A stretch of DNA of 58,697 bases, the filler included, from Sphacelaria rigidula (Eukaryota): assembly GCA_964200075.2 (NCBI GenBank). It is 10 parts of 10 records of this genome, joined end to end, with 100 filler letters (N's around TTAATTAATTAA, not from the genome) between each part and the next. Parts side by side here need not be neighbours in the genome. Positions count along the whole stretch, not along the records: positions 1 to 5,780 come from CAXNAA020024518.1; 9 more parts are not named here. One strand, written 5' to 3'. The notes beneath the pieces were generated by a model. That model worked only from the letters and a program-made list of their open reading frames with translations. It ran no database searches and was not told the DNA's origin. Each line of letters begins with the position of its first letter. Within the stretch, counting starts at the first letter, position 1. Positions 231 through 58,640 of this stretch are shown here, piece by piece. The position numbers were made by a program, and so were the translations under genes.

Positions 231-1110
231 TCAGTCCAATAAGAAACCCAGTCTCGGCCAGAATTTCAGTTTCTTATGAGCGGGCTGATACTGTAACCCC
301 TTTACTTCACGCACCAGTCGTCCTAGTCTCGTCGCGTCTCCACCAAACCCGGCCACAGCATCGGCAATCGTCACCTTACCGCCATCCGCTAGCACCTCCA
401 TAAGTTGCAGCAACTGCTCTAAAGGGCTCATCGGCGACAAGACATCGCAATCATCGCCACCACCACCCAGAGCAACATCTGTACCCCTCGCAGCGCCTCC
501 ATTACGCCGAGAGGGTTGCACGGTGACGTCATCATCATTCTCCCCTGCGCCTCCCTCGTTCCGTCCCGCGGCCGCAGCAGCATGCTCCGGTACACCCGAC
601 CCGGGTTGATGCGGCCGATGTCGTCCTCGTAGTCGTTGTTCCTGTCCCCCCACGTAATAATCCGTAACGTCTAACGGCAAGTAGTCGTCGACAACAAACC
701 CCGGCGATGCCCGCTTCAACGCAACCGCTTCCTCCTCATCGTCTTCCCCGCCGGCGGCGCTCGTGACCCCGCCGGATGACGTCTGCGTCGAAACTTTTGG
801 ATCTTCATAAATTTTACCGATACCGCCCTTCCCACTAGCGTGTCCAATAATTTTGCCGTTATCTCTCCGCTCCGCTCGCGATGCGCGCCGCGTCCCGTCC
901 GCGACTCCGCCGCGCTTCCTAGGCTTGGTTATTATCGAAGGGGGTGGCGTCGATTTTGGTGCCGGGAAAGGTGCCGCGACCATGTTATCGGTGCCCGATG
1001 TGGTGAGGGTAGCTGCAGCAGCGACTGCGGCCGCCGCTCGACACCATGCCTCGTACGCGACGCTCTCTAATGCTTCTTCCAGCGAGGAAGAACGTTTCGC
1101 CGAAAGTTGC
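231..1110 (-). CDS. Probable terminal exon of an unknown protein (low-complexity, with a small compact C-terminal domain)
   Basis: ORF 231..983 extends upstream in frame to an AG acceptor at 1111-1112 (QLSAKRSSSLEEALESVAYEAWCR...MVAAPFP...KLKFWPRLGFLLD*). GC-rich, Gly/Ala/Asp-rich composition. No family recognised. Confidence 0.6.
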
Positions 1111-1177
1111 CTTTTATTTTTTATTGCGGCCGGGGGGGGGGTGATTGGGTGGGTGGGTGGGTGGGGGATGGGAGATG

Positions 1178-1290
1178 GGGCGTACTCATTTGCTGCTTGC
1201 CTTATTGTAGTCGTTCAACCATTGACCACGCATCCCTTTCGAGACGGAGCACTATTCCTCCTTCTAACAGAGACACCACCAACATTTGGG
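1178..1290 (-). mobile_element. 3'-end fragment of the LINE family (family A)
   Basis: Near-identical to 8458-8565 (GTACTCATTTGCTGCTTGCC...GACCACGCATCCCTTTCGAGACGGAGCAC...GAGACACC), adjacent to a G-rich tract. Confidence 0.8.
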
Positions 1291-2004
1291 TGATCATTAC
1301 TTTAACTATCCCCCAAGTTATTTCACAAAAACCTCCGACACACATCTTATTCCCTCACTGTTTCGCCGCCTGTGGTACCATCTATCGGGATTTGCGGAGG
1401 GGCGGCGGGGGGAGTTCCGAAGGGGAATCAAGTAAGTGCGTAAGTAAGCAACTACAGCGAAATCCGAACAGATAATCGTAATGAAAAAATGTTGTTATAT
1501 GCACGCGTAAGCAAATATACAAATATTGCGCATTCAAAGAGAGTACCAACACACATTTTGATAAATATATTGAAGTCCAGTGTACGATGAACACAATGCT
1601 GCCTAGAAAGGATGAAAATATATATTCCTGTGCTGTTAAGAGTTCGAACAAATCAAAGGACAATCCTGTCCCATCTGTGCCCTCGACATGTTTTTTTTGT
1701 CAAACGCGCCGGCTAAGCACCATCCCTTCCTCCTTCACCTCCTCGAATCTCAGTCTGCTCAACATCCACACTTCCCCCGACAACCGATATTCGCGTGTTT
1801 TCGTGTGTTGGAACAGAATAGATGCAAAAAAAAAGTCATGCTGTCGTACGGGGAGCAGCAAGGGGTGGAATATCTCTCAGTCCCTACCCTCCCCCACCCC
1901 CTTAACCTGGTCCGGCGAGAACTCGGCGTGCTTCGTCCTGGCTTTGTCGGGACGGACCCCCGATGGGGTTGGCGTTGGTAGGCGATGACACAGTGAAACA
2001 CGCT

Positions 2005-2737
2005 ACTCAATCCGTAAGCTAGGCAACCAGGGTACCGATTTGTTTTTCTGCGTTTTTTTTTGCGGTAACGATGATGGTAGTCGAGTTAGATCATACTGTG
2101 CGGCGTCGGAGATCCTCCACTCCACGCAAAGGGGATGCTCGTACTACGCAGTGTTTAAATGGTGAACCATTCATGAGGCAGTGTAAAAGCCGTGGCTGTC
2201 TCTGAAAGTGACGATACCAGAAAATGAAGCAACCTATTGTAGGCCGTCATGACACTTTCTACGATAGCCTCCCTCAAAAAAGTGCATGGTTTGGGGAGGC
2301 GAAATCTTCACGTAAATCGAAATGTAAAAAGCCGAGCACAACGAGCAGCTTGGGATTCCTACGCTTGGCTTCGCTCTCGCCAATGTCGCCAATTTCATGC
2401 AACCTGAACCCAAACACCAGAAGCTGTATGGTCACTTTGTTCGTGACACTATTGGGCTAGTTTTTTTGGGGGGGGGCTATCGTAGGAATTGTCTCACCCA
2501 TACACGAGATAATCAGTACGCTTCGGGCCGAACAATTTGAGCAGGATGCAGCTCACCCTTCATGCGACTCGCCGAACACCGAACACGCCACGGCGCTTCG
2601 CGCTTAGTAATTGATTGCGAGCCCGGTCCAGCGAAAACCCGGCGCGCTTCGTCCCGGCTTTGTAGGGATGCGAGGTCAATGGTCTTATTACTGTGGCGTG
2701 CATGATCATGAGTACACCCCCCTCCCCTCCCCCCCCA
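2005..2737 (+). mobile_element. SINE-like element (family B), interrupted by a MITE at 2250-2494
   Basis: Colinear with the reverse complement of 3790-4475. Ends GGGATGCGAGGTCAATGGTC...CATGAGTACACCCCCC. No long ORF. A further fragment lies at ~1916-1952. Confidence 0.75.
2250..2494. mobile_element. MITE with ~30-bp TIRs (TGACACTTTCTACGATAGCC...) nested in family B
   Basis: Left end TGACACTTTCTACGATAGCCTCCCTCAAAAA, right end TTTTTGGGGGGGGGCTATCGTAGGAATTGTCT. Absent from the paralogous family B copy near 4005-4015. CA flanks both ends. A partial second copy is at 5881-5989. Confidence 0.8.
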
Positions 2738-3300
2738 ACAACATTCTCGCGTATTGGCCTAAAGACCACCAATGAAAGCAGCACGAAGGCCTTCGCAAGT
2801 AGCTGAATAAGCTAGCTGCAAGGAGTCAGTGTCGTAGGGGACAACCGATTGAGAACTGGATTGTATTCCTAGACTAACCTACATGGGGTGCATTGCGGTC
2901 TCAGGACAATTTCAAAACTCAAGCCTCCTCTCATCGGTGTTTCTTTTTTCAATCACCACCCATGAGTCCTGTCTTTCTGACTCGCGGCCAACCTGTGTCA
3001 GTCTCTCGAAATACATTTTTGAGATGCTTGGTGCGAGTCTACCAACACCCAACACATACATACTCTCAACGTACAAAGCACGTTCCGTTCCAGAGGTCTG
3101 ACTTACGTCTAGCAGCCTAAGTACTTGGATTTAGATAACCCTCCCATACACAAAAAAAAAAACACACCCCACACAAAAAACACACAAAAAAAAAACACGC
3201 GAGAAAAGGAGAGAGAGGAGAAANNNNNNNNNNCGCCCACAAAATGACCGCCCCCAGATTTTTTACTCACCCCTACGTACAACAGTACTCTGTTTTTACT

Positions 3301-3301
<1 letters not shown>

Positions 3302-3334
<33 letters not shown>
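3302..3334. repeat. Poly(C) homopolymer
   Basis: Uninterrupted run of more than 30 C. Confidence 0.95.
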
Positions 3335-3336
<2 letters not shown>

Positions 3337-3437
3337 TCAAGAACAAGAGTGTAGGTGTAGTCGCGGGAAAGAGTCGGGGTGAAGTCTCTCACGCGTAGCT
3401 GATCATGCAGTCACGCTCAAGTTCTCTGTGTAATATG

Positions 3438-3584
3438 CACACCCTGAACCATTGGATAAAATAGCAAAAAAAAATGTACTGCGTACAGTACGGAGTCTAA
3501 TGTATATTGCAACAGATGCAAGAGTCGATACTGTACGCCGCATACTTTTTGAAAATGTAATCTAGTGTCATCGTCCAGGGTGTG
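3438..3584. mobile_element. ~140-bp MITE (family E; TIR CACACCCTG(G/A)AC)
   Basis: CACACCCTGAAC...GTCCAGGGTGTG termini with an internal palindrome (TGTACTGCGTACAGTA...TACTGTACG). Homologues at 30508-30645, ~38016-38150 and ~38326-38450. Confidence 0.7.
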
Positions 3585-3789
3585 GCAATTTGTCTGTGTG
3601 GTATCACAATATTATACCGTGGGTGCGTTACATATTTCTAGTATCCGTCAAATCTTGCACCAAAAAAGGCCTTGTTTTCCCCTCCTGCCCCCGGCCAAGT
3701 TTGGGCACATTACATATATATATATATGTTTATATATATTTTCATATATTTTTCTTCATTCACTTCTTATCTGGGGAAGGGAGGGGAAG

Positions 3790-4475
3790 GGGTACTCATG
3801 ATCTTCCATGCCGTAGTCGTAAGACCATGGGCCTCGCATCCCTACAAAGCCGGGACGGAGCACGCCGGGTTTTCGCCCGACCAGGTTCGCGATCAATCAC
3901 CAAACGCGAAGCGCCGTAATGTGTACGGCGAGTCGCATGAAAAGGGTGAGCTACATCTTGCTAAGATTGTTCGGCCCGGAACCTGCTGATTATTAGCTTG
4001 CATTTGGATGACAGCCTACAACGAGTCGCTTCATTTCTCTGGTATAGCCACCTCCAGGACAGCCACGAGTTAACACACTGCCTCACGGGTGTCTCAATTT
4101 CCAAGGATGTACACGTTACACTCGTTACGTGTCACGTCGTCAAAAGTTAAGCCAGGCTAGTACTACGGTGGGGGACGGGGACCACAGCGGGAGCCCTGTT
4201 CAAAAGTCAAGTTAAATCAGGGCTCCCCACGCGGTCCCCCACCGTAGTACTAGCCTGGCTTAACTTTTGACGACTTTTGACGTGAGGCGTGAACGTAACG
4301 AGTGTAAGGCGTAGAGATCCTTGATGAGTTCAACACTGCGTAGTACCACCATCCCCTTTGCGAGGAGTTGAAGTTCTCCATCCCGCACAACATGATCCAA
4401 CCCGACCATCATCATGGTTACTGCAAAACAAACGTAAGTGAGAAAGAAAAAGGGTATCTGGTTGCCTAGCTTGCG
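3790..4475 (-). mobile_element. SINE-like element (family B), interrupted by the 5S-bearing foldback insertion
   Basis: Reverse-complement match to 2005-2249 plus 2495-2720. The 3' end GAGTACCCC abuts a G-rich tract at 3774-3792. Confidence 0.75.
4102..4323. mobile_element. Foldback (hairpin) insertion with ~100-bp inverted arms, each containing a 5S rRNA-derived segment
   Basis: Arm 1 (4102-4198) CAAGGATGTACACGTTACACTCGTTACG...AAGTTAAGCCAGGCTAGTACTACGGTGGGG...GGGAGCCCTG. Arm 2 (4218-4323) is its reverse complement. AAGTTAAG...CCAGGCTAGTACTACGGTGGGGGACC..GGGAGCCCTG follows the 3' half of eukaryotic 5S rRNA (box A start, box C). Confidence 0.8.
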
Positions 4476-4644
4476 CGGGGAGAGTGGCAGTAGACCTACA
4501 GCTTTGGGCGTATATCTATGGTTGACAGCATGACTACTTGATTTTCGAGGTGAGAAAGTTCCGAGAAGATGTATGGTTCAGGGTAGGTAAACAGAGGACC
4601 CAGCTCGTTCAGAGCGTGTTTTTGTCGAAATCGGCGCCTGCGGC

Positions 4645-4735
4645 GTCGATTTGAGGTCTGCCAACGCACACTTTTTCTAGGGCAACCTGTACGCCTTGGG
4701 TCGGGGTTAGGGTTAGGGTTAGTGTTAGTGTTATC
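4645..4735 (+). repeat. Dispersed repeat carrying telomere-like TTAGGG units
   Basis: GGGGTTAGGGTTAGGGTTAGTGTTAGTG preceded by GAGGTCTGCCAACGCACACTTTTTCTAGGG. A related segment (GAGGTCTGCCAGCATGCACTTTGCCTAGGG...GTCGGGGTTACGGTTAGG) is at ~38595-38715. Confidence 0.55.
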
Positions 4736-5780
4736 GTCAGTTTGTTCGAAAAAATCAACTATGGATATACGACCAAACTTTAGGTCTTCTCGAGAGTGGC
4801 GTGTTTTACACGTCGTTACCAACCGACGCCTACCCTTCAAAGGGGGTCTTTTTTTTCTTTCTTTCTTCTTTTTTCGGGGGGGAGGGAAGGTACAGTTTTG
4901 GCTATTCAAGTGCCATACCTTGGGAGAGGGGTCATTGTCGCCCGATGAAACGTTTTCACGGAGAATAACATACGATGTACAACGACATGCTTCTGTGCAC
5001 GCATTTATCCTGAGGTGAAGTGTGGTCGTTACAAACTATTATACAGGCTGGTTCACGGTGATTACCCAAAATTGTGTCATCAGCAAATGCCTTCCGCGAT
5101 ACGCACCCAATAGTCGCATATATGGTATCATACTGACCGCAATGAAAAGACGAAGAGGGTGAAATAGCCGGATTCTTGTTCAAGGTCGTAGCGGTGGCGC
5201 TATGGACGAAAATATGTGTCAGCCAATCAGCGCCCTTCAAACTGTTTGTGCAAATACCTGCAGACTGTGCAATATATGTTTTTCTCGTATTTTGTCCAGA
5301 GGGCGCCCTCGAAATCTCTGACGCAAGCGAATCGGAAAAGTGGGCTAGGCTCCTCTCGGTGGGGTGATACGAAGTGTCCAAGACGTGTGGTGGCGATATT
5401 CCCTGTTTGGGGGTCAAAAACCTTGTCAAATGTTCTAAAAGTGGAAAATACGAGCCAAACAAAGTACGAACCGGAAGAAACGGCCTCAAAATGGAAAAGT
5501 TGTATTCTTGACAACTCATCATATTTTCTCCGTTCTCTACGGGCTTCCGGGGGGTCCCAGCATGAAGACCCCCGGAAGGCGGTACAGAATGCCCTACAAG
5601 AAAAATAGTGAAATGATGCGTCCCGGGAGAGTCCAACGAACACATGTACAGAGTTTGGTGGAGAAACTCGAAAACCTCATACAGTTTTTCTTGCCTTGAC
5701 GTCAAATTCACCCCAGAAGACGTTTTTATACTAAAACCAAGTAGTTAGGAGTTGCACGTTTCAAGCCCACGTCCTCCACA

Positions 5781-5880
5781 NNNNNNNNNNNNNNNNNNNN
5801 NNNNNNNNNNNNNNNNNNNNNNNNTTAATTAATTAANNNNNNNNNNNNNNNNNNNNNNNNNNNNNNNNNNNNNNNNNNNN
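5781..5880. other. Artificial contig-joining spacer (N-run, TTAATTAATTAA, N-run); recurs at 11661, 17541, 23421, 29301, 35181, 41061, 46940 and 52819
   Basis: Identical 100-nt spacers with stops in all six frames, separating contigs of 5780/5779 bp. Confidence 0.97.
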
Positions 5881-5989
5881 AATATGAGGCGCTCCATGCA
5901 GCCTGAACCCGAACATCAGGCGCTTTATGGCCATTTTTTTCGTGACACTTTAAGCTGGTTTTGGCGGGGGGCTATCGTAGAAAGTGTCA
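5881..5989. mobile_element. Right end of the same MITE family as 2250-2494
   Basis: CATGCAGCCTGAACCCGAACATCAG...GGGGGCTATCGTAGAAAGTGTCA matches 2395-2494. Confidence 0.75.
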
Positions 5990-8003: not shown

Positions 8004-9763
8004 GTGGGTGAGTCGGAGAAACGGGAGCTGATGAACGTCCTGCTGGACTTTCTGGACTGGGCCGTTCTCCACGGACCCGAAGTAGGTTCTGGTCACCATC
8101 AGCGGTCAGCCAGAGCTATCCATTGCGTAAGAGTACTGTACTCCCTTCGCAAATCAACCCTATTTTGTTATTACCGAGTAGCGTCACGTAGCTCCCCAAG
8201 CGGTAGACCCGAGACCGCTCGCACAGCACCGACCAAGGCTCCGCAACAGGTAGGTGTGAGTACTGGTCATTTCGCACAGTAAGCGAACGAATGAAGGTAA
8301 GCGAAGTGATCTCCGCAGGGGGGGAAGCGCCTTGTTCATCCGCACACCTCTGACTGGACACAGTGGTGAATGATCGTGCTGTGCAGACCCTTGCGCATCC
8401 AACCTGATCGCCTGCAAAGGGACCCTCTGCGAGAACAGGTGCAATCAGACCTGAGGTGGGGCGTACTCGCTTGTTGCTTGCCCTAGTCGTTTGACCATTG
8501 ACCACGCATCCCTTTCGAGACGGAGCACCGCTCCTACCCTTCATAGAGACACCTTCAACATTCCGGTGCTTATGACGTTTCTCCCATAGCTCATTACGTT
8601 GCTTCCATGCATTGCGCAAAGAGTTTTCACATATCAAATACATAAAACGATTCATGCCACCTTCGTTCACGTCCCGCATTTCCCCTTCTAGCACGTCCCG
8701 TTCCTCCTGGTGTAGTTCACATTCTGTCACTATATGACTTATGTTCTCTATTGCTTTGCCACCGAGGCAGTTCTGCCCATCTACTTCCTCCTCTTTCCGA
8801 CTACTAGTATACCTCTTTCTTTTTTCCGGCAGGTTCAGGTCCCCCACCCGAAGTCGCAGTTTCATTTTTTTCGCCGCGTCCACGGGGCCATGCAGATATG
8901 TTTTCATGCCGATCCCCTCTCTCACCCCCTTGTATATCTCCAGGTGTTCTTGCTCGTCTACCTTACGTCTGAGCGCTCCTTCCCCCCCCCTTTTTTATCA
9001 TGTCTCTCACTTTTGCCTTGTAACCCGCGCCTTCACCTATGGACATTATTCGTCTTCGTTTCCTCATTTCTCTTCCATACATCGTCGACTTTTCTATCCC
9101 ACCTTATGGCATCCCCTTTCGTACTTTTCTTCCATGCAGCCTTATCAACCACAGTGGGCTGTCTCTTTGTCTGCATGTTTGAGCTATATTGCCATCTCAA
9201 TTCCTCATGCCTTCTGCTTGCTTTAATTGAGTACATTTCCAAGTCTGCTCTCAAAACTGTATTATTACTCGTCGTTTTGGTGCTTCCAAATATCTTCTTA
9301 GCTGCTGCTATTTGTACTGTTTCTAACTTCTTCACCAATTTCACGTTCCACTGCCATACTTCTCCTACATATTCCAGCTTTGGTACGATCACATTCATCA
9401 GGATACATCTCTCAATCCTAGTGTCTAGGTGCGGATCTCGGAGGGTCACGTTCATCCTTCCTATCCGTGGCTTACCACTTTTTATCACTTAGTTTATGTC
9501 TGCATCCCAAGAACAGCGTTTTGATATCTCTACGCCAAGGTATGTATATTGGTCTAGAATCGACAGTTCCTCTTCTCCCCGCTTCCATTTGAACTCTACC
9601 GGATTTTGTTCTTCGTGGATTCATATCTCGCTCCAGGTGGTAATGCGTGACCTCGTCACATCGGAATTATTTCTTGAAAGCTACTGTACCGAGGTGTTTA
9701 CTCAGCCAGCGCGCGTGCTCCAGATTCAGCATGGACGCAGCCCTTTGCACCACGCTCGCAACG
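8004..9763 (+). CDS. Two exons (8004-8081, 9637-9763) of an unknown protein; the second ends in an ankyrin-like GRSPLHHA motif
   Basis: caacag|VGESEKRELMNVLLDFLDWAVLHGPE|gtaggt joins in phase 0 to ctccag|VVMRDLVTSELFLESYCTEVFTQPARVLQIQHGRSPLHHARN|gttaga. The intron holds an antisense LINE. Confidence 0.55.
8456..9625 (-). mobile_element. 5'-truncated, degenerate non-LTR retrotransposon (LINE, family A): end of RT, thumb and C-terminal Cys/His region
   Basis: Minus strand encodes ...LDQYTYLGVEIS (last RT motif), then IVPKLEYVGEVW...LETVQIAAAKKI, then YLHGPVDAAKKMKLRLRVGDLNLPE...CLGGKAIENISHIVTEC, ending GCVVNGQTTRASNK followed by GAGTACGCCCC. Frameshifts and stops present. Confidence 0.85.
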
Positions 9764-10945: not shown

Positions 10946-12257
10946 CTGACATGAGGGGAATAGCTATTGCATTGTTGATAGCACCGCGACTAGGTTAGTT
11001 TAGGCGCCGTGCTCGTCCTTCAAGACTTCTTTTTTCTTACGAAAATGCGGGGAAGGCACGGCACGGGCGTAGTTCGTACGCAAAAGACATGGCACGGGCA
11101 CGTTGCACCTCAACTCCCACCGGCGGGGTATTGCCATCTTCTGTTTTTTTAGAGCCTACGTCACATGGGCTCGATTCCTTCAAAACATTAGTTCCTTCTC
11201 TCCGATCCGTGGTCACGGGGTGCAAGGAGCCTACCACCCATGACCATAAAACCAAGAGTTGACAGAGGATGCGTTTACACAAAACGGTACACTACACGAA
11301 AGGAGCGAGCCCGCAAAAACCGATCGCACAACAAAGAACACCCTGCGAGCTGACAAATTATCGGCGTGTGATCTAGACGGCCAAATTACCACCTACTGCT
11401 GCATATTATTCGTGTAGAGACAGCAAACGCAGGAATCGGCATGTCGCAGGTGACGAGAACCATCCCGTAATAGACCTAGTCATATTAATATTGGAAAAAA
11501 CCCCAGGTTCAAGAAACTGAGGAAATAGCTTCATCACCGAAGCATCAACTGACTTGGCTCAACATCAATATCAAGTGAGTTAATCACCCTATAACAGGGT
11601 TGCCAGAAAAGTGAGAACGTGTTTTGAAATGAGAATCAACCGCTCCCCGGGATTGTGTAGNNNNNNNNNNNNNNNNNNNNNNNNNNNNNNNNNNNNNNNN
11701 NNNNTTAATTAATTAANNNNNNNNNNNNNNNNNNNNNNNNNNNNNNNNNNNNNNNNNNNNCCGGCAGACTACGTCGGTGAGGGGCGGAAGGGGAGGGGTT
11801 ACGCCCCCCCCCCCCCCCCCTACACGCGCCAAGACCATTCGTGTGTTGTCTACATCCAAGGTCGCCCTTGTTCTATAGGGCAAGCTTAAACAGGATAAAC
11901 GCTTTCTTCCCCATCTTGTGAAAAAAAGCCATTTGATCCCCCTCTATCGTTGAACGTGTCCTGGGAGAGCGGGCTGAATCTTTGTCCTTATCCTACAAGG
12001 GGGTGTAACTCATTGCTACCACTTTTATAGCTTCATTCAGAGTAGAGGCTTGCTTCTTCGATTATTTCCCCAGGTTTTCAACGTTTTCAGCTATCAACCA
12101 ACTAAACTATGAGCCGAGTTTACTGTCAACAATAACAACAGCAACAGTACTAGCAGTACAGCAACAACAATGACAACAAACGAAGCAGCGGTAGCAGCAG
12201 CAGCGATGCACCATGGCAATGACAGAATACATAGTAACAAGAATAAAACAGTATTAC

Positions 12258-14080: not shown

Positions 14081-14979
14081 TAGTAGTCAGCATAAGTAGA
14101 TTTCAGAATTCGGAGTTGTTGTAGTTCTTCAGTTTTTCTCGAGTATTATTCTTCATTACTACTTGAAAGTGCTAGCACCGGTAAACTTAGGGGGAAAGGG
14201 TAGGCCGCGCTCAAACTGCATTGCCGAAATTGGAAATTCGTGTTTATGGGGCGATACGGACTAGATACCCCGTTTATCAGGAGGGTGTTATGGGCCGTTT
14301 TTGGTCCAATAAAAACAGTATTCCGGCTCTCCGCAACGAAACGGTAAATGTTCAGATGAATGAATACATATACAATTCTTCACAATAACGATCGAGATCG
14401 TGTTTCCCTCCTACACTGCACAGACCTCAGTCACGCATTTTCTGCGGGTGGCATCTTTTCGTTTTTATTTCGCATAACATTTTCCATGAGCACTCGAAAG
14501 TGCCAGCGTCGATAGTTTCGGCAAAATAAGCAGACCGTGCTCAAATCACAATGCCCAAGTTGGTGTTGTGGGGGCGATATGGAGTCAAGGCCCCGTTTAT
14601 CGTGATGGTGTTATTGACAGTGAATGGTCCAGAAACATAGTTTTCCGGCTTTAGCGCAGGGAACAGGCGGAATTGAAAAAAATAATAGTCATTTTCGTGT
14701 CTTTACTTGTATGATCGGGATCGAGTCGGTCCACCGAAAATATCGAAAAGCTAGAACCTGGGGTTGCACTTTCGCAGGGCCACCGAAGATCGGTCAGGCC
14801 CGTAAGTCACTAAATATTCATCGCCGACATTTCTTCTTTCTTTTTTGTCAAGAGGATAAAAATATCTCCAGATGGCATCTAACAGTCACGGTGATGAGCG
14901 GTGGCAAGCGAAACAAATTTGGAAAATCTTGAGAAACGAGGGAATTACGAATTCAGCATACTTCTGACGCTGACTACTG
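14081..14979 (+). mobile_element. ~900-bp non-autonomous Tc1/mariner-like element (family C) with an internal duplication
   Basis: Ends (T/C)AGTAGTCAGC...CTGACGCTGACTACTG|TA. Full-length inverted homologue at 51129-52013. Two internal units each contain GGGGCGATA..GA....CCCCGTTTATC. Confidence 0.75.
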
Positions 14980-16408
14980 TACTTTGCATTAAATTCATTA
15001 CCGAAGGACCCGAATTCGCTCTCATCAACATCACTTGCCAGTCCTACAACCTCGAGATCGCGGCAACACGACCGCAAAAATTGGCTTACCCGTAGGCTAG
15101 GATACAACGGACAGAATCTTGTACAGTATCTGTATCTTGTATCTTGACGGTGCGACTAAACCACCATTCAAACTGGGCCGGACATGACTGACCGGTTGTC
15201 GAAAATACAGGAATTTCCAACCAGCCTCCAACTAAAACAACATCGATCGAGAAATACAAAGAAGTACTCCTTGCGACTGGGTTCGCACTGTGATCTTATC
15301 GGCGGTCTGCGCTGGGTAGGAGGTGATTTGTCCACTCATTCCTGTGACCGGTAGTACTGTCGTCCAGACTGCCCTTCGACAACGCCCACCACCGAACAAG
15401 GTTGCAACGTACGCGCTGGCGTGACTGATCTGTCCACCACCCAACCAAAGACAGCTAGCTATACAGGGACGACTTCTAATGCAGATCAATACCAAGTTAG
15501 TGCTGAGCCCATGGCGACAATAATATGACGATTATCGATGAGGAACCTGTGACAGACAGTCCCGAATGTTTGCATACGCTAGGACACGCCCGAGAGGTCT
15601 CCTTGTGACCATTCACAGCAGCATCCCCTGTAGCCGTAGAGGGGTGTTCGATACAGATTCCAATATTGTGTTCAGACTAAAATCAACATTGCCTCCCAAC
15701 TGGAATTCGAGCTCAACACGCATAACGGGTGTGATACATCCCATACCTTGTCCACTGACGCCGTCATCGTTGATTTCGCGGATTACGGGGTAGGCCAAAG
15801 CTGGTAGTTCCGCGTGTCGGTGATGGTCGGCTCAGAGCCCGTACCTCGTCGTTAGATTAAAAATAGGAAATGAATTAAATAACATGTACGAGGGTCATTT
15901 TCTACTTCGCCAACGGTCAAAAATCCAAAAATACGGAAAAATAGCTGCGATGATCATCTGGAACATAATGGCAACGCGCTCAAATACTTGATTTCCCTCG
16001 AATCTATACGCCTTGTATTGTGAAGACAAAAACAACTTGCTCCTTCACTCATATTCAAATTTGAAGAATAGAAAATTACCGTGGGCAAAGACTTTCCGTA
16101 TGCTGTCGTGAGAAGGCAATGACCATATCAACGCGAATCGAAGACTTGACTCTTACCTTAGATGACGGAGTTTAACACTCTGTAATGACAGCTGCTTTAT
16201 CATTATTGTCTTGAGCCAAGGATATGATGAGTCTGAAGTCATAAGATACCTATTTTTCGAACATTATTGACGAAAACCTCAAGAGATTAACTTTGGGTGA
16301 CTCTGATTTCGCCGATCACTGACTGTACCGCAAAGTATCATTGCCTGCGGGGGAAGGGGTGTTATACACCGTCATCGCCAAATGTGAGCGGTACCTGGGT
16401 TGTTTCAG

Positions 16409-29086: not shown

Positions 29087-29162
29087 GTGGGATGTGAAGA
29101 CGTGTCGCTTGTTGAAGTCGTTCCGTGGGGGGAGGGAGGGAGGGAGGGAGGGGAGGGGGGGG

Positions 29163-29203
29163 CGCGTACTCATTTGTTGCTTGCCTTAGTCGTTTGACCA
29201 TTG
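29163..29203 (-). mobile_element. Very short LINE family A 3'-end insertion within a G tract
   Basis: CGTACTCATTTGTTGCTTGCCTTAGTCGTTTGACCATTG with G-runs on both sides; a second GTACTCAT terminus follows at ~29216. Confidence 0.75.
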
Positions 29204-29959
29204 GGGGGGGGGGGGGTACTCATCATTCGGTTTCCTTTTGGCGTTGGCCAGATGGGCTGGGCTCCCTACAAAACCGCGGCGGCGGCCGCCGGGTGTTTGC
29301 NNNNNNNNNNNNNNNNNNNNNNNNNNNNNNNNNNNNNNNNNNNNTTAATTAATTAANNNNNNNNNNNNNNNNNNNNNNNNNNNNNNNNNNNNNNNNNNNN
29401 GATAGGGGGGGGGGGCGTGGGAAACAAGAGAAACCCACGAACTGGTTTTCATTCCCTACTCTCAAATACACAAAGAACTTCGAACTGCTTGTTTCTCAAC
29501 TACTACTGGGGGGACTGACTGATCGATTGCTTGAGACAACAGACTCGTCCAGTGAAAGGACAGGGGTGTTATTAGAAATACGACGGGCGTGAAAAAAAAA
29601 AGACGTGGGGGTACTGTGGTGAAGGGTGATGAAAAAAACATTGTTTTCGTGAAAACGAGAGTTCCGCGTTGATTGAGAGTGGATTTTATTATTCGCTTTG
29701 TGCGTGTTTTCATTTCCCTTCAACACTACCGTCTGCTTACTTACAGCTACGCGCCGATATCCTCCCCAGAAATGTCGACGGCTGGCTCGGTGGCAAACTA
29801 CCCCAGAAGGTGTATCGGGCCTCGTGGAGGGGCACTTCGGAACTGAAAAAAAGAACATTAATGAATTATTTCATTGACCGTTCCCCACTCTCGATCGTAT
29901 CCGGGACCACTCTCAATCTCACAAAATATTTCAAGGGTCGGACAAGAGATTATTCGTCT

Positions 29960-31727: not shown

Positions 31728-34180
31728 CAACAAAAACGATGGTAAGGACGGGCAAACACGAAGTCATGATACTGCGCTAAAACCGACTGGCAGTATTTGT
31801 CCATCACATATACCGTAAGTTCTTCCGAGTATATCTCCACATGAATGTGTGTGTATATATGGTATATCCATGCACGGCAACCAATGAACACCATAGATCG
31901 TCAGTGGTCTTGTGACGGGGATGAGTGCGTGGGTGTTTGTGGGTGGCCAATTCCATGCTGACACAAGAAGGCAACAGCATATCCATTACACTCAGAGCAA
32001 CCAATACATATTGTCTGCCCCTTGTCCAAAAACAAAAAATTAACTGAACAGCCGAATCAATTTTGTATCATACAGGGTGCCTTCCCCTTCTCCAAAACAA
32101 CCGAAAACATTATTTACTTATGAACCAAGCACAAAATATAAAACCCTCCCAACCCACCAAGCTCATCATTAAGATATATACATGATTCATTACAACATAA
32201 AAATACGAGATATTATTTCTTCTTTTTCAAGAATATCCAGTTGGCAGTAGCTCCACGACCGGTTTGAACCCCCCCCAAAATGAGTATCAACGACCACTGC
32301 AAATGCGCTCCCTAGGTTTTGTACAAGGCCATGCCGTAAAGAACGTCGTTCATTCGACCTAGGACTTCGTAGGAATTTCAGAAATCACACAGGTGGAGCA
32401 CATGTACACTCTGGCCATGATTTGTCTCGTGCCACAGGTGCAGAAAACTCTTTCAGGATGCCACATGAGCCAATTCTAAAAAAGTCACCGGCTTGAAGAG
32501 GCAAACTCAACATGCAGATTATAATCAAATACAACAAGCCGAGCACGCCGAGCAGCTAGGAGCCCCCACGCCTGGCATATTCTTCTCCTATCCCGCGCAC
32601 ATGAGGCGAAGCTTCATGCAGTCTCAACACAATCATCATGTGCTGCATGGTCATCTTCGTGACAAATTTGAGAGGGGGAGGGGCGTCACACTCTCTGGCT
32701 TTGAACCCCTCCTCGATGATGTACCCGCCATAAATACATGTAAGTTACAAGACCATGCATGTGTTGATTTTTCAGGGGCGTTTTTTTCACGGATATCAAG
32801 CATGCGTTCTTCACTTACCCAACATCAGCTCAGGAACAGCAATATGCTACAGACCGCGCGACCCTCTTTGACGTGGTCGACCGTCGCAATCTGCTTCGTC
32901 GGGAATCGGGTGTGTTCTCGAGCTGAGTGCGAGCTAAAGCGCAAAACATCACTACATATTTATATCCACTCCAACTAATAAGAAACACTCCGGCAGTCTG
33001 TGGTTTGAGTCTGCTGTGGATACTTTCCTCCGCTCTCTCGTGATCGTCACGCACAGTACAAAATATTTTTCATCCTGCATTCGAGCGACTACTCCCTCAC
33101 AGACTGTGCATGTGGTGATGCATCAAAATTTGGGAACTTTCGTAATATGCGAGAGAAGATGCAAAAAAACGAAAAACGGCTCCTTCTCATCTCCGTGCAC
33201 AATTTTCAAGACTCTCCACGGCTGCTTTAGTCGTCGTTCCGTACCACATCTTCAGGCCATCGTGGGCCACCGCATCTCCTTCGCGCCGCGCTGTACGACA
33301 TGGTTGATGCTGGAGTGTCTGCGGTGGTAGACAATTGAATCAACTCCTTCTTTGCTGCCTTTTCGAGGCGACTCTTGCAAATCAAAGTACTTTTTTTTTT
33401 CTCGCTAGACCACCAGAGCGCGGCGCCATACAATCGAATCAATTCCTTCTTTGCCGCCTTTGTTGGGGCAGGCGGCGGAAGCGCGGATTCTTCGGCTCAT
33501 TTTTTCTCACAAATATCTGATTCCCCCGAGATTGAAAGCGTGAGGACGTGAATACAGTAGCAGAGAAGAGTCCCTTCGGCTGAACTTGTCAAACGCAGCC
33601 AACGCGGTGCTGGCAGTACTGGTCATGATCCATTTCACGATACCAGAATGTAAGGAATGTACCAACAGATAGATATATGGAGTGATCATCGCCAAGACAG
33701 CGGAGTCGTCCCGAGGAGGGGGGAGGAAGTGAGTAATGAAAAAAAAAAAAGTTATTCAATACCCTTGGGTATGATCTCGACCGACCACAACAAACCTACA
33801 GTTACATGGGGGAATCCATACGCATTCACATCGCTTTAGAGTTGAAAAACAATGAGAAAGATAAGTGCGATAATACTTTCAACCCATGACGAACGAGTGC
33901 GTGAGCACACATCCATGCCATCAGTTCCCGTTTATGCGTTGGCATTTGCGTGGGGGGGGGGGGGAAGGGGGGGGTTCGTTGAAGACTTCAAGACACGTCA
34001 TCACCAAAAATTATAGGAGGAGGGGTAGTGGGTATTAAATTAGATGAACCGGCAGGGTTCAACTCAAATCACAGCCTCTTGTGTGTATGTGTGTGTGAAG
34101 AAGTGTCAAGGCGTTCTAGAGTCGCATGGATCACAGATGTAACGAATCGCCGGATCTACGATTTCTCAGGCCTGATTGCT

Positions 34181-34244
<64 letters not shown>

Positions 34245-35052
34245 GACCGCGGGTCAAAGAAGTCTCGACGCAATTTTGCGATATTATGCCCTGTACAGAT
34301 AAGGGTATATGTCCGGAAGCGCGAATTTCCACCTTCAAAACCGTGGTCGGAAGCAGGAACGTTTGTTGCGGACACGCTTGTCACCAGTAAGACACACTCA
34401 ACTCAAACCACTTGATGACACCGTTTTCACCCGAATGGAAACGCACTGCGAGTAGTTTGGTCGTCTGATACACCGGTGAGCCCGTGTTCTTCGTGCAATC
34501 AACCCCCTCTCCCTCCCCCGACCCGACCCTCTGTATCGCAGCATCACTTTCATCTAAGGACGCAACATCACAGATGTAATACCACTCTTCGCTGTGTTCA
34601 AGGTCCGTGTCCCCCCCGGCGTGCGCAATGTCTGCGGTCTGCAGATTGAGACGGGCGAAATCTTCCCTTGGTTTTCATTGCGTATTTTACCACCGAGGAT
34701 AGACGATTTAAGTGACATCTAGAGTCGCACCACCACTGATCACCACGCTCGAATACTCCATAATCCACGATATGTTTATGTGGATATGTTCACCGCTTTT
34801 TATTATGGTAGAATGAAATTAGATGGGTGTGATGGCATTGAAAACGCCCCCCCCCCCCGTTCCTGTCCAAGGCAAGCAACAAATGAGTACACCCCCCCCT
34901 TCCTGTCTCATTTTAATCATCACCTCCTCTGACCGTCGCCGCTCCGCCTTTTCAACTATAGTCTTTGCTCGCTCTGCCATGTCGAACGCTTCCTTTTCTC
35001 GCCCCTCCAGCACCATTGCGGCCTTGGCTGCCTGCTTCTCTCGATTTTCCTT
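30224..35052 (-). CDS. Three phase-0 exons (34924-35052, 31577-31669, 30224-30349) of an E/R/K/Q-rich coiled-coil protein
   Basis: KENREKQAAKAAMVLEGREKEAF...RRSEE | QDKQRVIEEERRQEQLRQQEANMRRFEEKKR | ESERLLREQREREALL...KRKAE. All have canonical AG/GT ends and lengths divisible by 3. Confidence 0.8.
30508..30645. mobile_element. MITE family E copy
   Basis: CACACCCTAGAC...GTCCAGGGTGTG; homologous to 3438-3584. Confidence 0.7.
31677..31732. repeat. Compound (CAC)n(AAC)n microsatellite
   Basis: Directly visible, next to the exon acceptor. Confidence 0.95.
33200..33660 (-). pseudogene. Degenerate Ty3/gypsy-like integrase zinc-binding (H2C2) region
   Basis: Across frameshifts: GIVKWI...IFVRK...RR..AAKKELI(R/Q)L..HRRHSSINHVVQRGAKEMRWPTMA.DV...AVESLENC, resembling H-H...WP.M..DV...V..C..C. 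Confidence 0.4.
34182..34238. repeat. (GA)n microsatellite
   Basis: Directly visible. Confidence 0.95.
34869..34899 (+). mobile_element. LINE family A 3'-terminal fragment
   Basis: AAGGCAAGCAACAAATGAGTACACCCCCCCC, preceded by a C-run at ~34847-34858. Confidence 0.7.
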
Positions 35053-35104
35053 CTGCTCGGTGGGAGGCAGTATGTACAGTGACGGGGCCGGCGGGCCGGC
35101 GGGA

Positions 35105-35180
35105 GGGGAGGCGTACTCATGATCATGCATGCCATAGTCATGAGACCATTGACCTCGCATCCCTACAATGCCGGGACGGA
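35105..35180 (-). mobile_element. Family B 3' end (cut by the contig end)
   Basis: GGCGTACTCATGATCATGCATGCCATAGTCATGAGACCATTGACCTCGCATCCCTAC...GGGACGGA. Confidence 0.8.
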
Positions 35181-35280: not shown

Positions 35281-35399
35281 AAGCAACAAATGAGTACGCC
35301 CCCCCCTCCCCCTGGTCCGGCGACAACCCAGCGTGCTCCGTCCCGGCTTTTGACGCGAGGTCAATGATCATGAGTACACCCCCTCCCCCTCCCCCCCCC
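35281..35399 (+). mobile_element. Tandem family A and family B 3' ends, each followed by a C-run
   Basis: AAGCAACAAATGAGTACGCCCCCC, then CCTGGTCCGGCG...GTGCTCCGTCCCGGC...GATCATGAGTACACCCC. Confidence 0.8.
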
Positions 35400-35419: not shown

Positions 35420-35501
35420 TCGCAAAAAAGGCTTCGAGCCGCATGAAGCGCTGTATATGGGCGACATAGACGTGAATGAAGCCAAGCGTTGGAATTCCCA
35501 G
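35420..35501 (+). CDS. Possible internal exon, unknown protein
   Basis: ctgcag|..RKKGFEPHEALYMGDIDVNEAKRWNSQ|gtgctc. Confidence 0.45.
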
Positions 35502-36572
35502 GTGCTCGTTGTGCCCCGCTTTTTTCATTTCATTTCATTTCACGTGTAGATTTTGCCTCCCCAAACCAACCATTTTTTGTGGGACTTTCGTAAAAGGTGC
35601 CCAGGACACGGTGTGAACTCCTTCTTACTCGTATGCCAAGAGCTCCCACGAACTCTGTCTAACTAAGGCCCCGTACTTGATGGATTCAAGTCAAGATGAA
35701 CTCTGACCGGAGATGGGGAAGAGGTCATCATGCTTGGTGATTCTCCAGGCGAAGTTCAGGGTGCTAAACCCTGTTTAGGCCCGTGACTGATGGAGGGTGA
35801 GTTGACATCGACCGGTACGACTTTCGAATCGAGAGCGCTCGTTCTACCCAGCGTCAGAGATGAAAATCGAACGGAATAAAAAGTTGGATACGATTTTGTA
35901 AGATATCGACCAAAAAAGTCAATATCGATATTTTTGTCGATACTCGGAAAATAGCCAAACTACTTTCTGGTTTTCTGGGCCTTCGACCGTCTTGTATGAC
36001 AACTAATCCGTATTTGTACAAATATGTGGATTTCAGCCCATTGCCTTTCGGTACACCGGCTGACGGTCGCGCGGGGCACATGTAACCCTGTACTGCACTA
36101 TTTTTGTAGAAAATCAACACTTTTTTGTGTAAAACAGGCCAGTACGATACTGGCTGTACCGTCTGCATACCCGGAGTGTGTGCGTCGGACGCAAGTCTAC
36201 ACTTTTCGGCAGATGCATGTGAGGGCATTAAGGGGGGTCGCGGAAGGAAGGTCAACGCAAGGGTCTTTACTTTCTTATTATTTTTATCACCTCAACTATG
36301 CATCTACTTGATATGCTAGCATAATTTCTGCCAAAGTTCCGCCTTGTTGGCATTAATAGCATAGCGTTTCAGCAAATAGCATCACCGAGCATAATTTTTT
36401 ACCGTAGGGTTGGGAACACGGGTCTAATTACTGGCCTGCTGTGATATTTTGGGCGAAAAACTCTGCTATCATCGAGTGCGGGTCTGAAATACGTGTATAC
36501 TCTGGAACTAGTCATTCAAACTGCGAGTCTAATAGATCGCAGGTCTGAAGAACGTTTTTCATGACAGCACAC

Positions 36573-40972: not shown

Positions 40973-41220
40973 CGACCACTTTCGACGATAGCCTCCCCCC
41001 CCCCCCCCCCCCCCCCCGCCCCCCCCCCCCCCCACCCCCCCAAACAAAAAGGAAAAACAANNNNNNNNNNNNNNNNNNNNNNNNNNNNNNNNNNNNNNNN
41101 NNNNTTAATTAATTAANNNNNNNNNNNNNNNNNNNNNNNNNNNNNNNNNNNNNNNNNNNNCCCCCCCGCCCCGGGTTTGCTGCTCGCCGGGGCGGGGGGG
41201 GGGGGGGGGGGGGGGGGGGG

Positions 41221-41333
41221 GTATACTCATGATCATGCCTGCCATAGTCATCTGATCGTTGACCTCGCATCCCTATAAAGCCGGGACGGAGCACGCCGGG
41301 TTTCACCGGACCAGGCTCGCACTCAGTCACCAA
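41221..41333 (-). mobile_element. 5'-truncated family B copy with G-runs on both sides
   Basis: TACTCATGATCATGCCTGCCATAGTC...GACCTCGCATCCCTATAAAGCCGGGACGGAGCACGCCGGG...CACCAAG. Confidence 0.8.
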
Positions 41334-41533
41334 GGGGGAGGGGGGGGGGCGGGGGTTCACAGCTTTCAGTTGGCACGAGCCTTTCTTCAGAGTTGATATT
41401 TTCGCTTTTTCCCGTTTTCCCCCGAGTGACTCGCGCGATATTGACCTGAAACGTTTGACTCATCTTCAGAAGGGGAATGCCGACGTCGAGATTTTGAACA
41501 CATGGTTGATCGGAGGTGTCCATCCGAACTTAC

Positions 41534-44629: not shown

Positions 44630-44910
44630 TTCGGTATTTTCGATCAATCGAGCCTGTTCGGATGGTAATTGTGACGTAACGAAAAGGACTTTTTTTTTCA
44701 TGTTACCAACAGTACTCACTGCACTGGAGCCGAAAAACTGTGTTTCACGAGCAATTATACCTGTACGATAAACGGGGTATCTACTCGTATCGTCCGGCAG
44801 TAAGTAACACGAACTTGGGCACTGTGTTTTGCGAACGATCTGTTTATTTCACCAAAATCTATCGACGCTAGCACTTTCAAGTTCTATCGAAGAGTAGTAC
44901 TCGAGAAAAT
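44630..44910 (-). mobile_element. Family C fragment
   Basis: GATAAACGGGGTATC...CTATCGACGCTAGCACTTTCAAG...TAGTACTCGAGAAAA matches 51500-51600 and 51920-51960. Confidence 0.7.
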
Positions 44911-47651: not shown

Positions 47652-47717
47652 TCTCGAAAGGGATGCATGGTCATTGGTCAAACGACTAAGGCAAGCAACA
47701 ATTGAGTACGCCCCCCC
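47652..47717 (+). mobile_element. LINE family A 3'-end fragment
   Basis: TCTCGAAAGGGATGCATGGTCATTGGTCAAACGACTAAGGCAAGCAACAATTGAGTACGCCCCCCC, with C-rich sequence on both sides. Confidence 0.8.
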
Positions 47718-50416: not shown

Positions 50417-51128
50417 GCTGAAACCCAATTTCCAAGAAACGGTAGCCTCCTGTTGTTGGCTCGCAGACCCAGAAGATCCAATAAACATATGTGAAAATCT
50501 TGCCGACACAAACACGCCCGAATGACATCTTGAAAAACACCAGATCATTGCGGGATATTCAATTTGTCCCTCGATCTTCGTGATCTCCGGCACACAAGCG
50601 TTCGCGCCCTGGGTGCATCGTCGGATCTTCCGGGTCTACGGCCCAACCAGCAGCGGGCTACAAATTCTTGGTCCTTGGTCTCGACCTTTGTGCGGGGTGT
50701 ATTTTCACAATGATGGGTATTTTTTGGACTGTTCGCCGTACTTTTTCCCGATAAGCCAAATTTTTCTTGGACTACTGAAAAAAAATCGGGAACCTGGCGA
50801 AAAAAGTGAAAGTGAGCGCACCGAAGATTGTGCAAGCAGCGCTAGAATCCTCTTGGAAAACATGGCAAACATTTCAGATGGGGCTCCACCCGCCAAGGTC
50901 CGTATTCCGCTGAAAATCTACCATCAAAGGCTCAAGGAGCGCGTTTTCCGACTAAAGGGAGCGCTAGGATCCCGTCCAGGATTTGCAGCCGGCAGTGCTA
51001 CAGAGGGCATTTTGTTCTATCCATCGGTGGTTGTCGGTCAGCGACTTCATCATCGTGTTTGAGGGTAGGAAACGGACCGCTCAGTAGGGTGACGTGTACA
51101 TGGTGTGTTCTTGTGCGGTGGGATATTA

Positions 51129-52013
51129 CAGTAGTCAGCGTCAGAAATATGCAGAATCCGTATTTCATTCATTTCTCAAAGATTGTCCGAATTGTTTTGC
51201 TCGCCACCACTTATCACAGTGACTGTTGGATGCCAAAAACATTTTATACCTCTTGACAAATATGGAAAGGAAAATTATCTGCGATCAATAATGAGTGACT
51301 TACGGGCTTGACCGATCTTCAGGGGTCCTGCGAAAATACGACCCCAGGCTCTAGCTTTTCGGTATTTTCGGTGAACCGGCTCGATTCGGATAATATGAAT
51401 GGAGACTCAGAAAGGATTGTTAGAAATTCTACATAGTCACTGCGCTAAAGCAAGAAACCATGTTTCTTGAACCATTTATGATCAATAACACCCTCCTGAT
51501 AAACGGGGTCTTTACGCGGTATCGCCCCCACGACATCAACTGGGGCGATTGTGATTCAAGCACGGTGTGCTTACTTTGCTAAAACTATCGACGCTAGCAC
51601 TTTCGAGTGCTCATGGAAAATGTTATGCGAAAAGAAACAACGAAAACAGGCCATCTGCAGAAAATGCTAGACTGAGGTCTGTGCAGTATAGGAGGTGAAC
51701 ACGATCTCGATCGTCATTGTGAAAAATTTTATACGTTTTCATTTATCTGAATTTTTAACGTTTCGTCGCTGAAGAGCGGGAAAACTGCTTATATTGGACC
51801 AAAAACTGCAATGACACCCTCCTGATAAACGGGGTATCAGGTCCGTATCGCCCCAAAAACACCAAGGCGAGCACTGCAGTTCGAGCGTGGCCTACGCATT
51901 TCCCATAAATCCACCGGCGCTAGCACTTTCAAGTTGTAGTGAAAAATAGTACTCCAGAAAAACTGAAAAAATAGAACAACTACGAATTCTGAAAACTTTT
52001 GATCCTGACCACT
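51129..52013 (-). mobile_element. Family C Tc1/mariner-like non-autonomous element (inverted copy of 14081-14979)
   Basis: TA|CAGTAGTCAGCGTCAG start; colinear reverse-complement match along its length. Confidence 0.75.
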
Positions 52014-52707
52014 AGATATCTTGTCACCGCGGTTACTCTTGGCGGGGGCTAATGTTAAGAGAAAAATCCGTCTACGGGCACAGCATGCTTGGTGTCTCGT
52101 GCCCGACAAAAGCCCGAGACACGCTCGTCTACAAAATTGTGGCTTCTATGGTCGACGTTTAAATCACGTATATATATTTTGCATCAACACAAGAATTTGA
52201 AGCACAAAGGTCAACACCTGGCTCGTCTGGTACTGCAAGTTGGAGTTCGAATATCATTCTATCACCCCTGTATTCATGACTTGGGTGCTGACTTGTATAT
52301 CCGACGTCTGCCAGCACCTCGTGGTGGAGTGTTTCATGTCCGGTAGCGTTCAATGCAAATGCTGTCGCTTTGAGAATCGAAGCTGTGTACGAGTATAAAT
52401 ACTGTGGTCCGCTCTCATCAGTTATTGTGATCTAGGTGAATGCTTGGTGCCCACCAAAGTCTCTACTTGTATTTACTTTCCGGTACACTTCCAGTCCCTC
52501 TCCTCCCTCGGGACGAGTCTGTGGTCTCGAGGGATCAACCCATCTTTACACGGTACATGCCTTGCGTTTTGGTGTAGCGAATTAGATCAGCTCACCCGCG
52601 CCGCGTCAACTCTCGCCAAATGAACTCGGGCAAGAAGACTTTTTTTTGTCTTCACTTGGGTCCTTACGCTTCCAACGGTAGAGATCAGATACTTGACATC
52701 CAGGACC

Positions 52708-58307: not shown

Positions 58308-58640
58308 CAGTAGTGGGCGGTCTAATTATTTAGGGGTGTTTTGGGGTTTTCCTCGCGTAGTACTCTTCGATAGACGTCGAAATTGCTTGCGTCGGTAAAT
58401 TTTGTTACAACACAATAGATAATCTTCGAAACACAGTGCCCAAGTCAGTGCATGTTGGTGTTATGGGGCGAAACGAGTAAATACCCCGTTCATCAGGAGG
58501 GTGTTATTGACCGTGAAACAAAGTTTATCAGCCCTAGTGCCATGAGTAGGCAGAAAAAAAAAAATAATAAACTGAACTTTTCTTCACAAATATTATCAGG
58601 ACGGGCTCGATTGACCGAAAATACAGAATAACAGCCGATT
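58308..58640 (+). mobile_element. Family C-related element fragment
   Basis: TA|CAGTAGTGG start; TATGGGGCGAAACGAG...ACCCCGTTCATCAGGAGGGTGTTATTGAC matches 14245-14292 and 14570-14620. Confidence 0.65.

Follow-up and report, generated by a model that had tools for sequence, protein, structure and literature searches.

What is the repeated sequence at positions 2620-2737 (+) of a 58,697-nt stretch of Sphacelaria rigidula DNA (hereafter the window), and which of its features might have allowed it to spread? The initial annotation had proposed that it is the end of a non-coding family (family B) which shares a conserved, multi-stem 3' RNA fold with a LINE (family A) and is mobilised by it. We are confident that families A and B stand to each other as a LINE and its partner, and 2620-2737 is very probably the 3' end of a ~580-nt non-coding, non-autonomous retroposon that uses the machinery of an RTE-X type LINE. 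That a two-hairpin fold, rather than sequence alone, is what the machinery recognises is possible, at somewhat less than an even chance.

A common 3' tail in two repeat families

The window consists of eukaryotic DNA, its contigs (each ~5,780 nt) being sorted by size and joined by linkers of the form N44-TTAATTAATTAA-N44, for example at 5781-5880 and 11661-11760. Physical linkage holds only within one contig, and features on two sides of a linker are unlinked; the family B 3' end at 2620-2737 lies in the first contig (1-5780). Neither tRNA genes (ARAGORN) nor Rfam families at gathering score were found in the window. In the first contig, positions 315-1111 (-) within an ORF at 231-1214 were matched perfectly by a portion of a 3,436-nt contig from a presumed-RNA run and were covered more deeply in that run than in DNA runs; this segment probably represents an exon of an expressed gene. 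The ORF, with a frame of 327 aa, had no Pfam match, and a LINE tail adjoins it. Short TTAGGG-type telomere-like repeats at 4700-4740, decaying into GTTAGT units, are internal to the contig. Elsewhere, a ~900-nt repeat is present in inverted orientation in two contigs (14081-14981 and 51127-52014, 81% identical), with shorter relatives at 44713-44909 and 58347-58548.

Alignments confined the homology between families A and B to their last ~70-75 nt. Within this tail, a 19-nt core running from the end of hairpin 1 to the start of hairpin 2 occurs in seven copies in the window, against 0.08 expected, a number reached in none of 100 shuffles. A covariance model made from five LINE tails and the structure of the initial annotation retrieved 11 tails at E<=1e-6, eight from the window and three from metagenome loci, and two further window fragments matched it at E~0.01. 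The alignment was guided by this model; MAFFT alone misaligned the two families in the 5' arm of hairpin 1. The consensus tails of the two families differ at 10 of 66 ungapped columns (85% identity), which bears out the claim of a shared end. Outside the window, the core was absent from viral contigs (0 matches) and present in 116 metagenome stretches, only three of which (L021, L033 and L088) extend past the 19-23 nt pattern. Each of these is a LINE tail and none of the metagenome stretches is a family B copy, so that no family B sequences came from outside.

In 2620-2737 the 5' strand of the proposed closing helix lies at 2641-2649, hairpin 1 at 2650-2670, hairpin 2 at 2680-2693 and the 3' strand of the closing helix at 2710-2718, followed by a C-rich tail to ~2737. 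Hairpin 1 of family B reads CGTCCC-GGCTTTGTA-GGGATG (2650-2670), and the LINE versions, CGTCTC-GAAA-GGGATG for hairpin 1 and GGTC-AAAC-GACT for hairpin 2, are located at 1179-1252 (-), 8460-8528 (-) and 47652-47712 (+); the hairpin sequences quoted in the initial annotation are indeed present in copies of both families. The copy at 2620-2737 has itself decayed, with two mismatches in the closing helix GGCGCGCTT/GAGTACACC and one in hairpin 2. A perfect 5' strand, GGCGTGCTC, is found in the copies at 3824 (-) and 41255 (-), and the majority letters of genome-wide contigs at 2645 and 2649 yield the same strand. In none of the family B copies of the window are the two closing strands both perfect.

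The first copy of family B, a non-autonomous RTEX-N1-like retroposon, spans 1904-2737 (+) and measures 834 nt including a later 243-nt MITE and its flanking bases. Single-copy contigs from sequencing runs of the same organism stop at 1901-1938 and restart at 2707, and between these points tens of thousands of diverged contigs cover the copy; the ends of the single-copy contigs set the 5' boundary of the family at ~1904. Many contigs connect 2233/2250 straight to 2507, and hence the MITE-like element at 2251-2493, with its 31-nt terminal inverted repeats, is a later insertion that interrupts the copy and is separate from family B. Without the 2251-2506 stretch the copy amounts to ~578 nt. The MITE-like family is ~240 nt long, with related pieces at 5895-5988, 32478-32664, 35457-35599 and 56592-56822 and another starting at ~40980; a second MITE-like copy cuts a family B copy at ~40975. 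A pile-up of contig ends at 2172 was rejected as a family boundary, as the X3 consensus runs on into B-like sequence, and is a local divergence of this copy.

The 5' head of family B (1906-1955, +) directly repeats the proximal half of the family's tail, namely the closing-helix 5' strand and hairpin 1, with 83-85% identity by blast to 2622-2668, 3825-3887, 41270-41315 and 35299-35350; a 181-nt contig covers it at 1904-2078. Between head and tail, the hairpin 1 module shows two stem changes, G-U to G-C and C-G to U-G, both of which preserve pairing. The head repeat may be tied to tandem copies or to the LINE 5' end. A second copy, at 3773-4475 (-), lacks the head, has the same body by blast and contains a foldback insertion at ~4100-4329. 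This foldback is near-perfect, with 58-nt arms that are 88% complementary and nested in longer arms, and microRNA precursor models match it below gathering score, with a best E of 1e-6. The remaining family B sequences are a 5'-truncated copy at 41202-41351 (-), with a tail of ~27 C and a C-run also on its 5' side; a tail at 35101-35180 (-), cut on the 5' side by the contig end; and a short copy with an internal deletion, followed by a C-run, which stands behind a LINE tail end and its C-run in a tandem array at 35281-35398 (+).

Family B is non-coding. Searches by tblastn with two full LINE proteins gave no similarity in 1904-2737 or 3773-4475 at E<=10, the longest stop-to-stop frame inside the family is 83 aa, and the hairpin 1 loop of 9 nt in place of GAAA shifts the frame in the tail. 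The initial annotation had specified what would speak against it, namely that family B is what remains of the coding 3' end of another LINE and lacks an independent 5' end; the missing tblastn matches and the short frame argue that this is not what family B is, and the family has a 5' boundary. Neither a tRNA nor a 7SL sequence was detected within family B by an E-value scan of 1800-4700, Rfam or ARAGORN, and the lone 5S match of the scan (E 1.2, 4206-4285) falls within the foldback insertion, outside family B. Family B as a strict SINE is thus unproven, no head derived from tRNA, 7SL or 5S having been found; the head may be diverged or novel in type. Summed contig depth reaches 2-4 million over the tails, compared with ~24-34 in flanking single-copy sequence, a measure that is not a copy number; on the same measure family B equals or exceeds the LINE tail in abundance. 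Contigs with family B also appear in run X5, which is only presumed to be RNA, and they are no firm sign of family B transcription.

The longest family A copy (8460-9617, -) is 5'-truncated and frame-shifted; it covers a 1328-aa endonuclease-RT protein from residue ~929 onward, and its tail is at 8460-8528. By tblastn (E 1e-107 to 1e-110) it aligns to P0008 over residues ~929-1328 and to P0012 over residues ~959-1360. These two relatives combine Exo_endo_phos and RVT_1 domains within one ORF (Pfam), that is, an apurinic-type endonuclease with a reverse transcriptase; on the decayed LINE pieces of the window Pfam gave nothing above threshold. The nearest relatives of the LINE protein that carry a name come from the brown alga Ectocarpus (4 of 13 matches). 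The other family A copies are all extreme 5' truncations. A 3' end at 1172-1303 (-) is followed by a long C-rich tail; the copy at 47652-47712 (+) begins within hairpin 1; tandem mini-copies at 29146-29225 (-) consist of a 9-nt element end with C13, then the last 45 nt of the LINE with a C-rich (CCCT)n tail, the family A part being 29146-29203; the last ~24 nt of the LINE with C8 are at 34868-34899 (+); and the LINE end of the tandem array is at 35281-35300. In addition, an internal LINE fragment is found at a contig start (52919-53019, -).

Three of the five LINE proteins, those reaching the ORF end (P0008, P0009 and P0012), finish with ...GQMTKASNK, and the frame of the copy at 29146-29203 (-) finishes with ...NGQTTKASNK-TGA. 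The TGA stop belongs to the 3' strand of the proposed closing helix and is separated from the C tail by 7 nt, and a tail of recognition size therefore overlaps approximately the last 21 codons of the LINE. The initial annotation was right on this point, in that the structure overlaps the end of the ORF and almost no 3' UTR is left. Short 3' UTRs are typical of RTE-type elements. The C-terminal motif is limited to close relatives, seven of the 165 proteins compared (among them the best 150 of 95,793 representative matches at E<=0.001), and the more distant LINE relatives among the matches listed end otherwise, with at most a faint resemblance in pattern. Two of these distant relatives, P0017 and P0018 (37-39% identity), have loosely similar C-termini, G..V.G.MT...N. 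and then a stop, a pattern which hints, at the level of sequence, that a tail embedded in the ORF may predate the brown-alga lineage.

All 15 element ends studied are followed by a C-rich run, with 11-24 C in the next 25 nt compared with 6.2 expected from the window composition; the set comprises six family A ends and one mini-copy from the window, three metagenome LINE ends and five family B ends. The C-run is part of the inserted element, since at 34860-34907 the LINE end and its C8 sit between perfect 8-bp target-site duplications (34860-34867 and 34900-34907). For family B no clean duplication was resolved in the window, where the flanks of its copies are C-rich. Copies of both families are 5'-truncated, truncated copies often have C-runs on the 5' side too, and at 29146-29225 and 35281-35398 elements lie head to tail inside each other's C-runs. 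We infer that the tandem copies and 5'-side C-runs fit target-primed reverse transcription in which the nicked G-rich strand pairs with the C tail.

Relation to known elements

A pair of this kind is described in the 2025 Ectocarpus mobilome paper (PMC12477816). There, RTEX-1_Ec32 and RTEX-2_Ec32 are classed as RTE-X LINEs; each has one EN-RT ORF, ends in (C)n at the 3' side and shows C-rich duplications. According to the same paper, the non-autonomous RTEX-N1_Ec32 measures 604-607 bp, shares 60 bp of 3' homology with the RTE-X LINEs at 83%, has a (C)n tail, C-rich duplications and tandem copies, and is the most abundant family with >6,000 copies; the Ectocarpus annotation notes a weak homology of its head to the 5' end of RTEX-2, and a shorter element of 188 bp, RTEX-N2_Ec32, has the same tail (PMC12477816). 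As far as that description goes, family B is alike in its length (578 nt against ~600 bp), in its (C)n tail, C-rich duplications and tandem copies, in its 5' head of obscure origin and in being among the most abundant repeats. Its 3' homology to a single-ORF endonuclease-RT LINE, ~66 columns at 85%, likewise corresponds to the 60 bp at 83% of RTEX-N1_Ec32. Hence the pair of family B and its LINE matches RTEX-N1_Ec32 and the RTEX-1/2 type on the basis of described features. By analogy, family A would be an RTE-X type LINE, a clade assignment drawn from the Ectocarpus annotation and from the shared single EN-RT ORF and C-rich 3' end. Family A also resembles the RTE and RTEX clades of non-LTR retrotransposons (Repbase classification, PMC5753468) in having a single ORF for endonuclease and RT. 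A further likeness is that hardly any untranslated sequence follows its ORF.

LINE/SINE pairs with common tails, RTE-clade pairs included, and stem-loop recognition by stringent LINEs are textbook knowledge, and in stringent pairs a 3' stem-loop is the usual recognition element, as outlined in PMC3747384. As in eel UnaL2/UnaSINE1 and in the tobacco TS SINE with its RTE-clade LINE, the partner here has the LINE 3' end and the same terminal repeat (PMC3747384). In contrast to the stringent pairs described there, in which the element is in the 3' UTR, the tail overlaps approximately the last 21 ORF codons, and unlike pairs of the UnaL2/UnaSINE1 type, the terminal repeat is rich in C, the search for a Pol III head in the partner was negative and the fold is without covariation. 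The pairing of the LINE with its partner is thus already known from Ectocarpus, and the fold model is our only addition: the main text of PMC12477816 contains no occurrence of stem-loop, hairpin or secondary structure, and our search, with subscription journals mostly outside it, found no publication linking RTE-X elements to a 3' stem-loop.

Predicted RNA structure of the tail

The comparison between the two families speaks for the fold. The consensus tails of A and B differ at one of 34 stem columns and at nine of 32 unpaired ones (Fisher p 0.005; p 7e-6 with indels), a test biased in favour of the fold as the stems were picked after viewing the same sequences, and the only stem change converts a U-G pair into C-G. 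The loop of hairpin 1 is swapped from GAAA (4 nt) to 9 nt with the stem retained, hairpin 2 keeps its arms while its loop differs between nearly all lineages, and the majority form of family B has a closing helix of nine pairs, compared with six. Nearly every copy is able to form the two hairpins, with 94.9% of the cells paired in a structure that was derived from these sequences. In all six pairwise comparisons the last 69 nt of the LINE show fewer differences (2-7) than the adjoining 69 coding nt (6-20), a conservation that may be partly due to the coding role of the tail. RNAalifold without guidance recovered both hairpins, with a 3-bp extension of hairpin 2, and missed the closing helix. 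This helix can be formed and appeared in the minimum-energy folds of six of the eight isolated tails of 69-75 nt, the entire proposed fold in three of them.

Other results do not favour the fold. The covariation suggested as a check by the initial annotation did not materialise: compensatory double changes were found at 0 of 17 pairs in 11 sequences, mostly dead copies, which give low power, and the covariation score of 0.111 equals the shuffle mean (0.111) and is reached by 425 of 500 shuffles. With natural flanks included, the folds vary between copies and the energies are ordinary (folding z-scores -2.6 to +1.3). The best fold of the LINE copy L033 is a competing long-range helix, and a G-to-C change in this copy disrupts the proposed closing helix and completes the rival one. 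The expected bias of substitutions toward loops, present between the family consensuses, was not seen within families, where variable columns in stems and loops (3/34 and 7/35 in A, 7/34 and 13/41 in B) showed no significant difference; dead copies are expected to vary alike in stems and loops, and thus the within-family data neither help nor harm the fold. Furthermore, the notion of a tRNA-like multibranch end is not supported, as Rfam, ARAGORN and the E-value scan showed no tRNA resemblance of the 3' end and the proposed fold comprises two hairpins only. We regard the two-hairpin model as a reasonable hypothesis, plausible but unproven, and not as a result.

Possible mechanism and alternative readings

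The mechanism that we infer, covering trans-mobilisation, G-run priming and the origin of the C tail, starts from features seen directly in the copies: homology, a common tail, 5' truncation, one perfect target-site duplication, insertion beside or into earlier C-runs, and very high abundance. The LINE protein would recognise the 3' element common to both families, on the LINE RNA itself and, in trans, on that of family B. The recognised element would most likely be a pair of short hairpins that a terminal helix holds together, the LINE stop codon being part of that helix. The protein would nick DNA at C/G-rich sites, and the nicked G-rich strand would pair with the templated C tail of the RNA and prime reverse transcription, which would account for both the C-rich duplications and the tandem and nested copies. 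The proposal that the LINE mobilises family B as a SINE stands in part: the family is non-coding and abundant and has the common tail, 5' truncations and tandem or nested copies, but the head of a strict SINE was not found.

The same tail could be read by the LINE protein as primary sequence, conserved blocks and C tail together, with the hairpins being incidental. We judge this unlikely, although it would fit the lack of compensatory changes, the ordinary folding energies and the closing helix missed by RNAalifold, and the most conserved stretch, GGGATGCG through GGTCAATGGTC, includes nine bases that the model leaves unpaired (columns 31-39). The distribution of the A/B differences is harder to reconcile with sequence recognition, as they sit in two loops while the complementary arms are intact or carry only wobble/Watson-Crick changes, and the non-coding tail of family B lengthens the closing helix from six to nine pairs in its majority form. 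An improbable alternative takes the similarity as a mere trace of descent, family B being a deletion derivative or chimera of the LINE (5' plus 3' end) whose tail is not under selection. Within-family decay that ignores stems would agree with such an origin, as would the weak homology of the RTEX-N1 head to the RTEX-2 5' end in the description of the Ectocarpus element (PMC12477816). Against it, the abundance of family B is no lower than that of the LINE tail; the family has thus been copied many times, and must therefore retain what the enzyme needs; moreover, divergence restricted to loops between consensuses that differ by ~15% overall argues for constraint. Least credible by far is the case named in the initial annotation, with family B as the decayed 3' coding part of another LINE and no independent 5' end. 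Beyond the shared tail nothing speaks for it, whereas the two full LINE proteins find no match in family B at E<=10, the 9-nt loop in place of GAAA shifts the frame of its tail, single-copy contigs end at its 5' boundary of ~1904, and its length of ~578 nt agrees with the 604-607 bp given for the published element (PMC12477816).

Returning to the LINE/partner reading with a recognised fold, its most far-reaching form assigns a dual role to the end of the LINE: the last ~21 RTE-X codons would double as an RNA element read by the LINE's own RT. Taken jointly with all its parts we hold this form to be rather unlikely. The element would consist of two hairpins and a terminal helix that closes them and includes the stop codon, and the unusually conserved C-terminal peptide ...APSRKGCVVNGQMTKASNK would be largely a by-product of the constraint on the RNA. 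The non-coding family B would keep the stems, swap the loops and lengthen the closing helix, and the C tail would prime on G-runs, causing the elements to home into each other's tails. The head of family B, which repeats the hairpin 1 module, may take part.

Conclusions

As reported for Ectocarpus in PMC12477816, the commonest repeat of this brown-alga-like genome is a parasite of a LINE, living on a tail of ~70 nt. To this our analysis adds a concrete fold model, with the predicted recognition element of the LINE placed within its own coding sequence and stop codon. If true, the model would offer a neat example of a sequence constrained both as RNA and as protein, in a clade of LINEs that has received little study.
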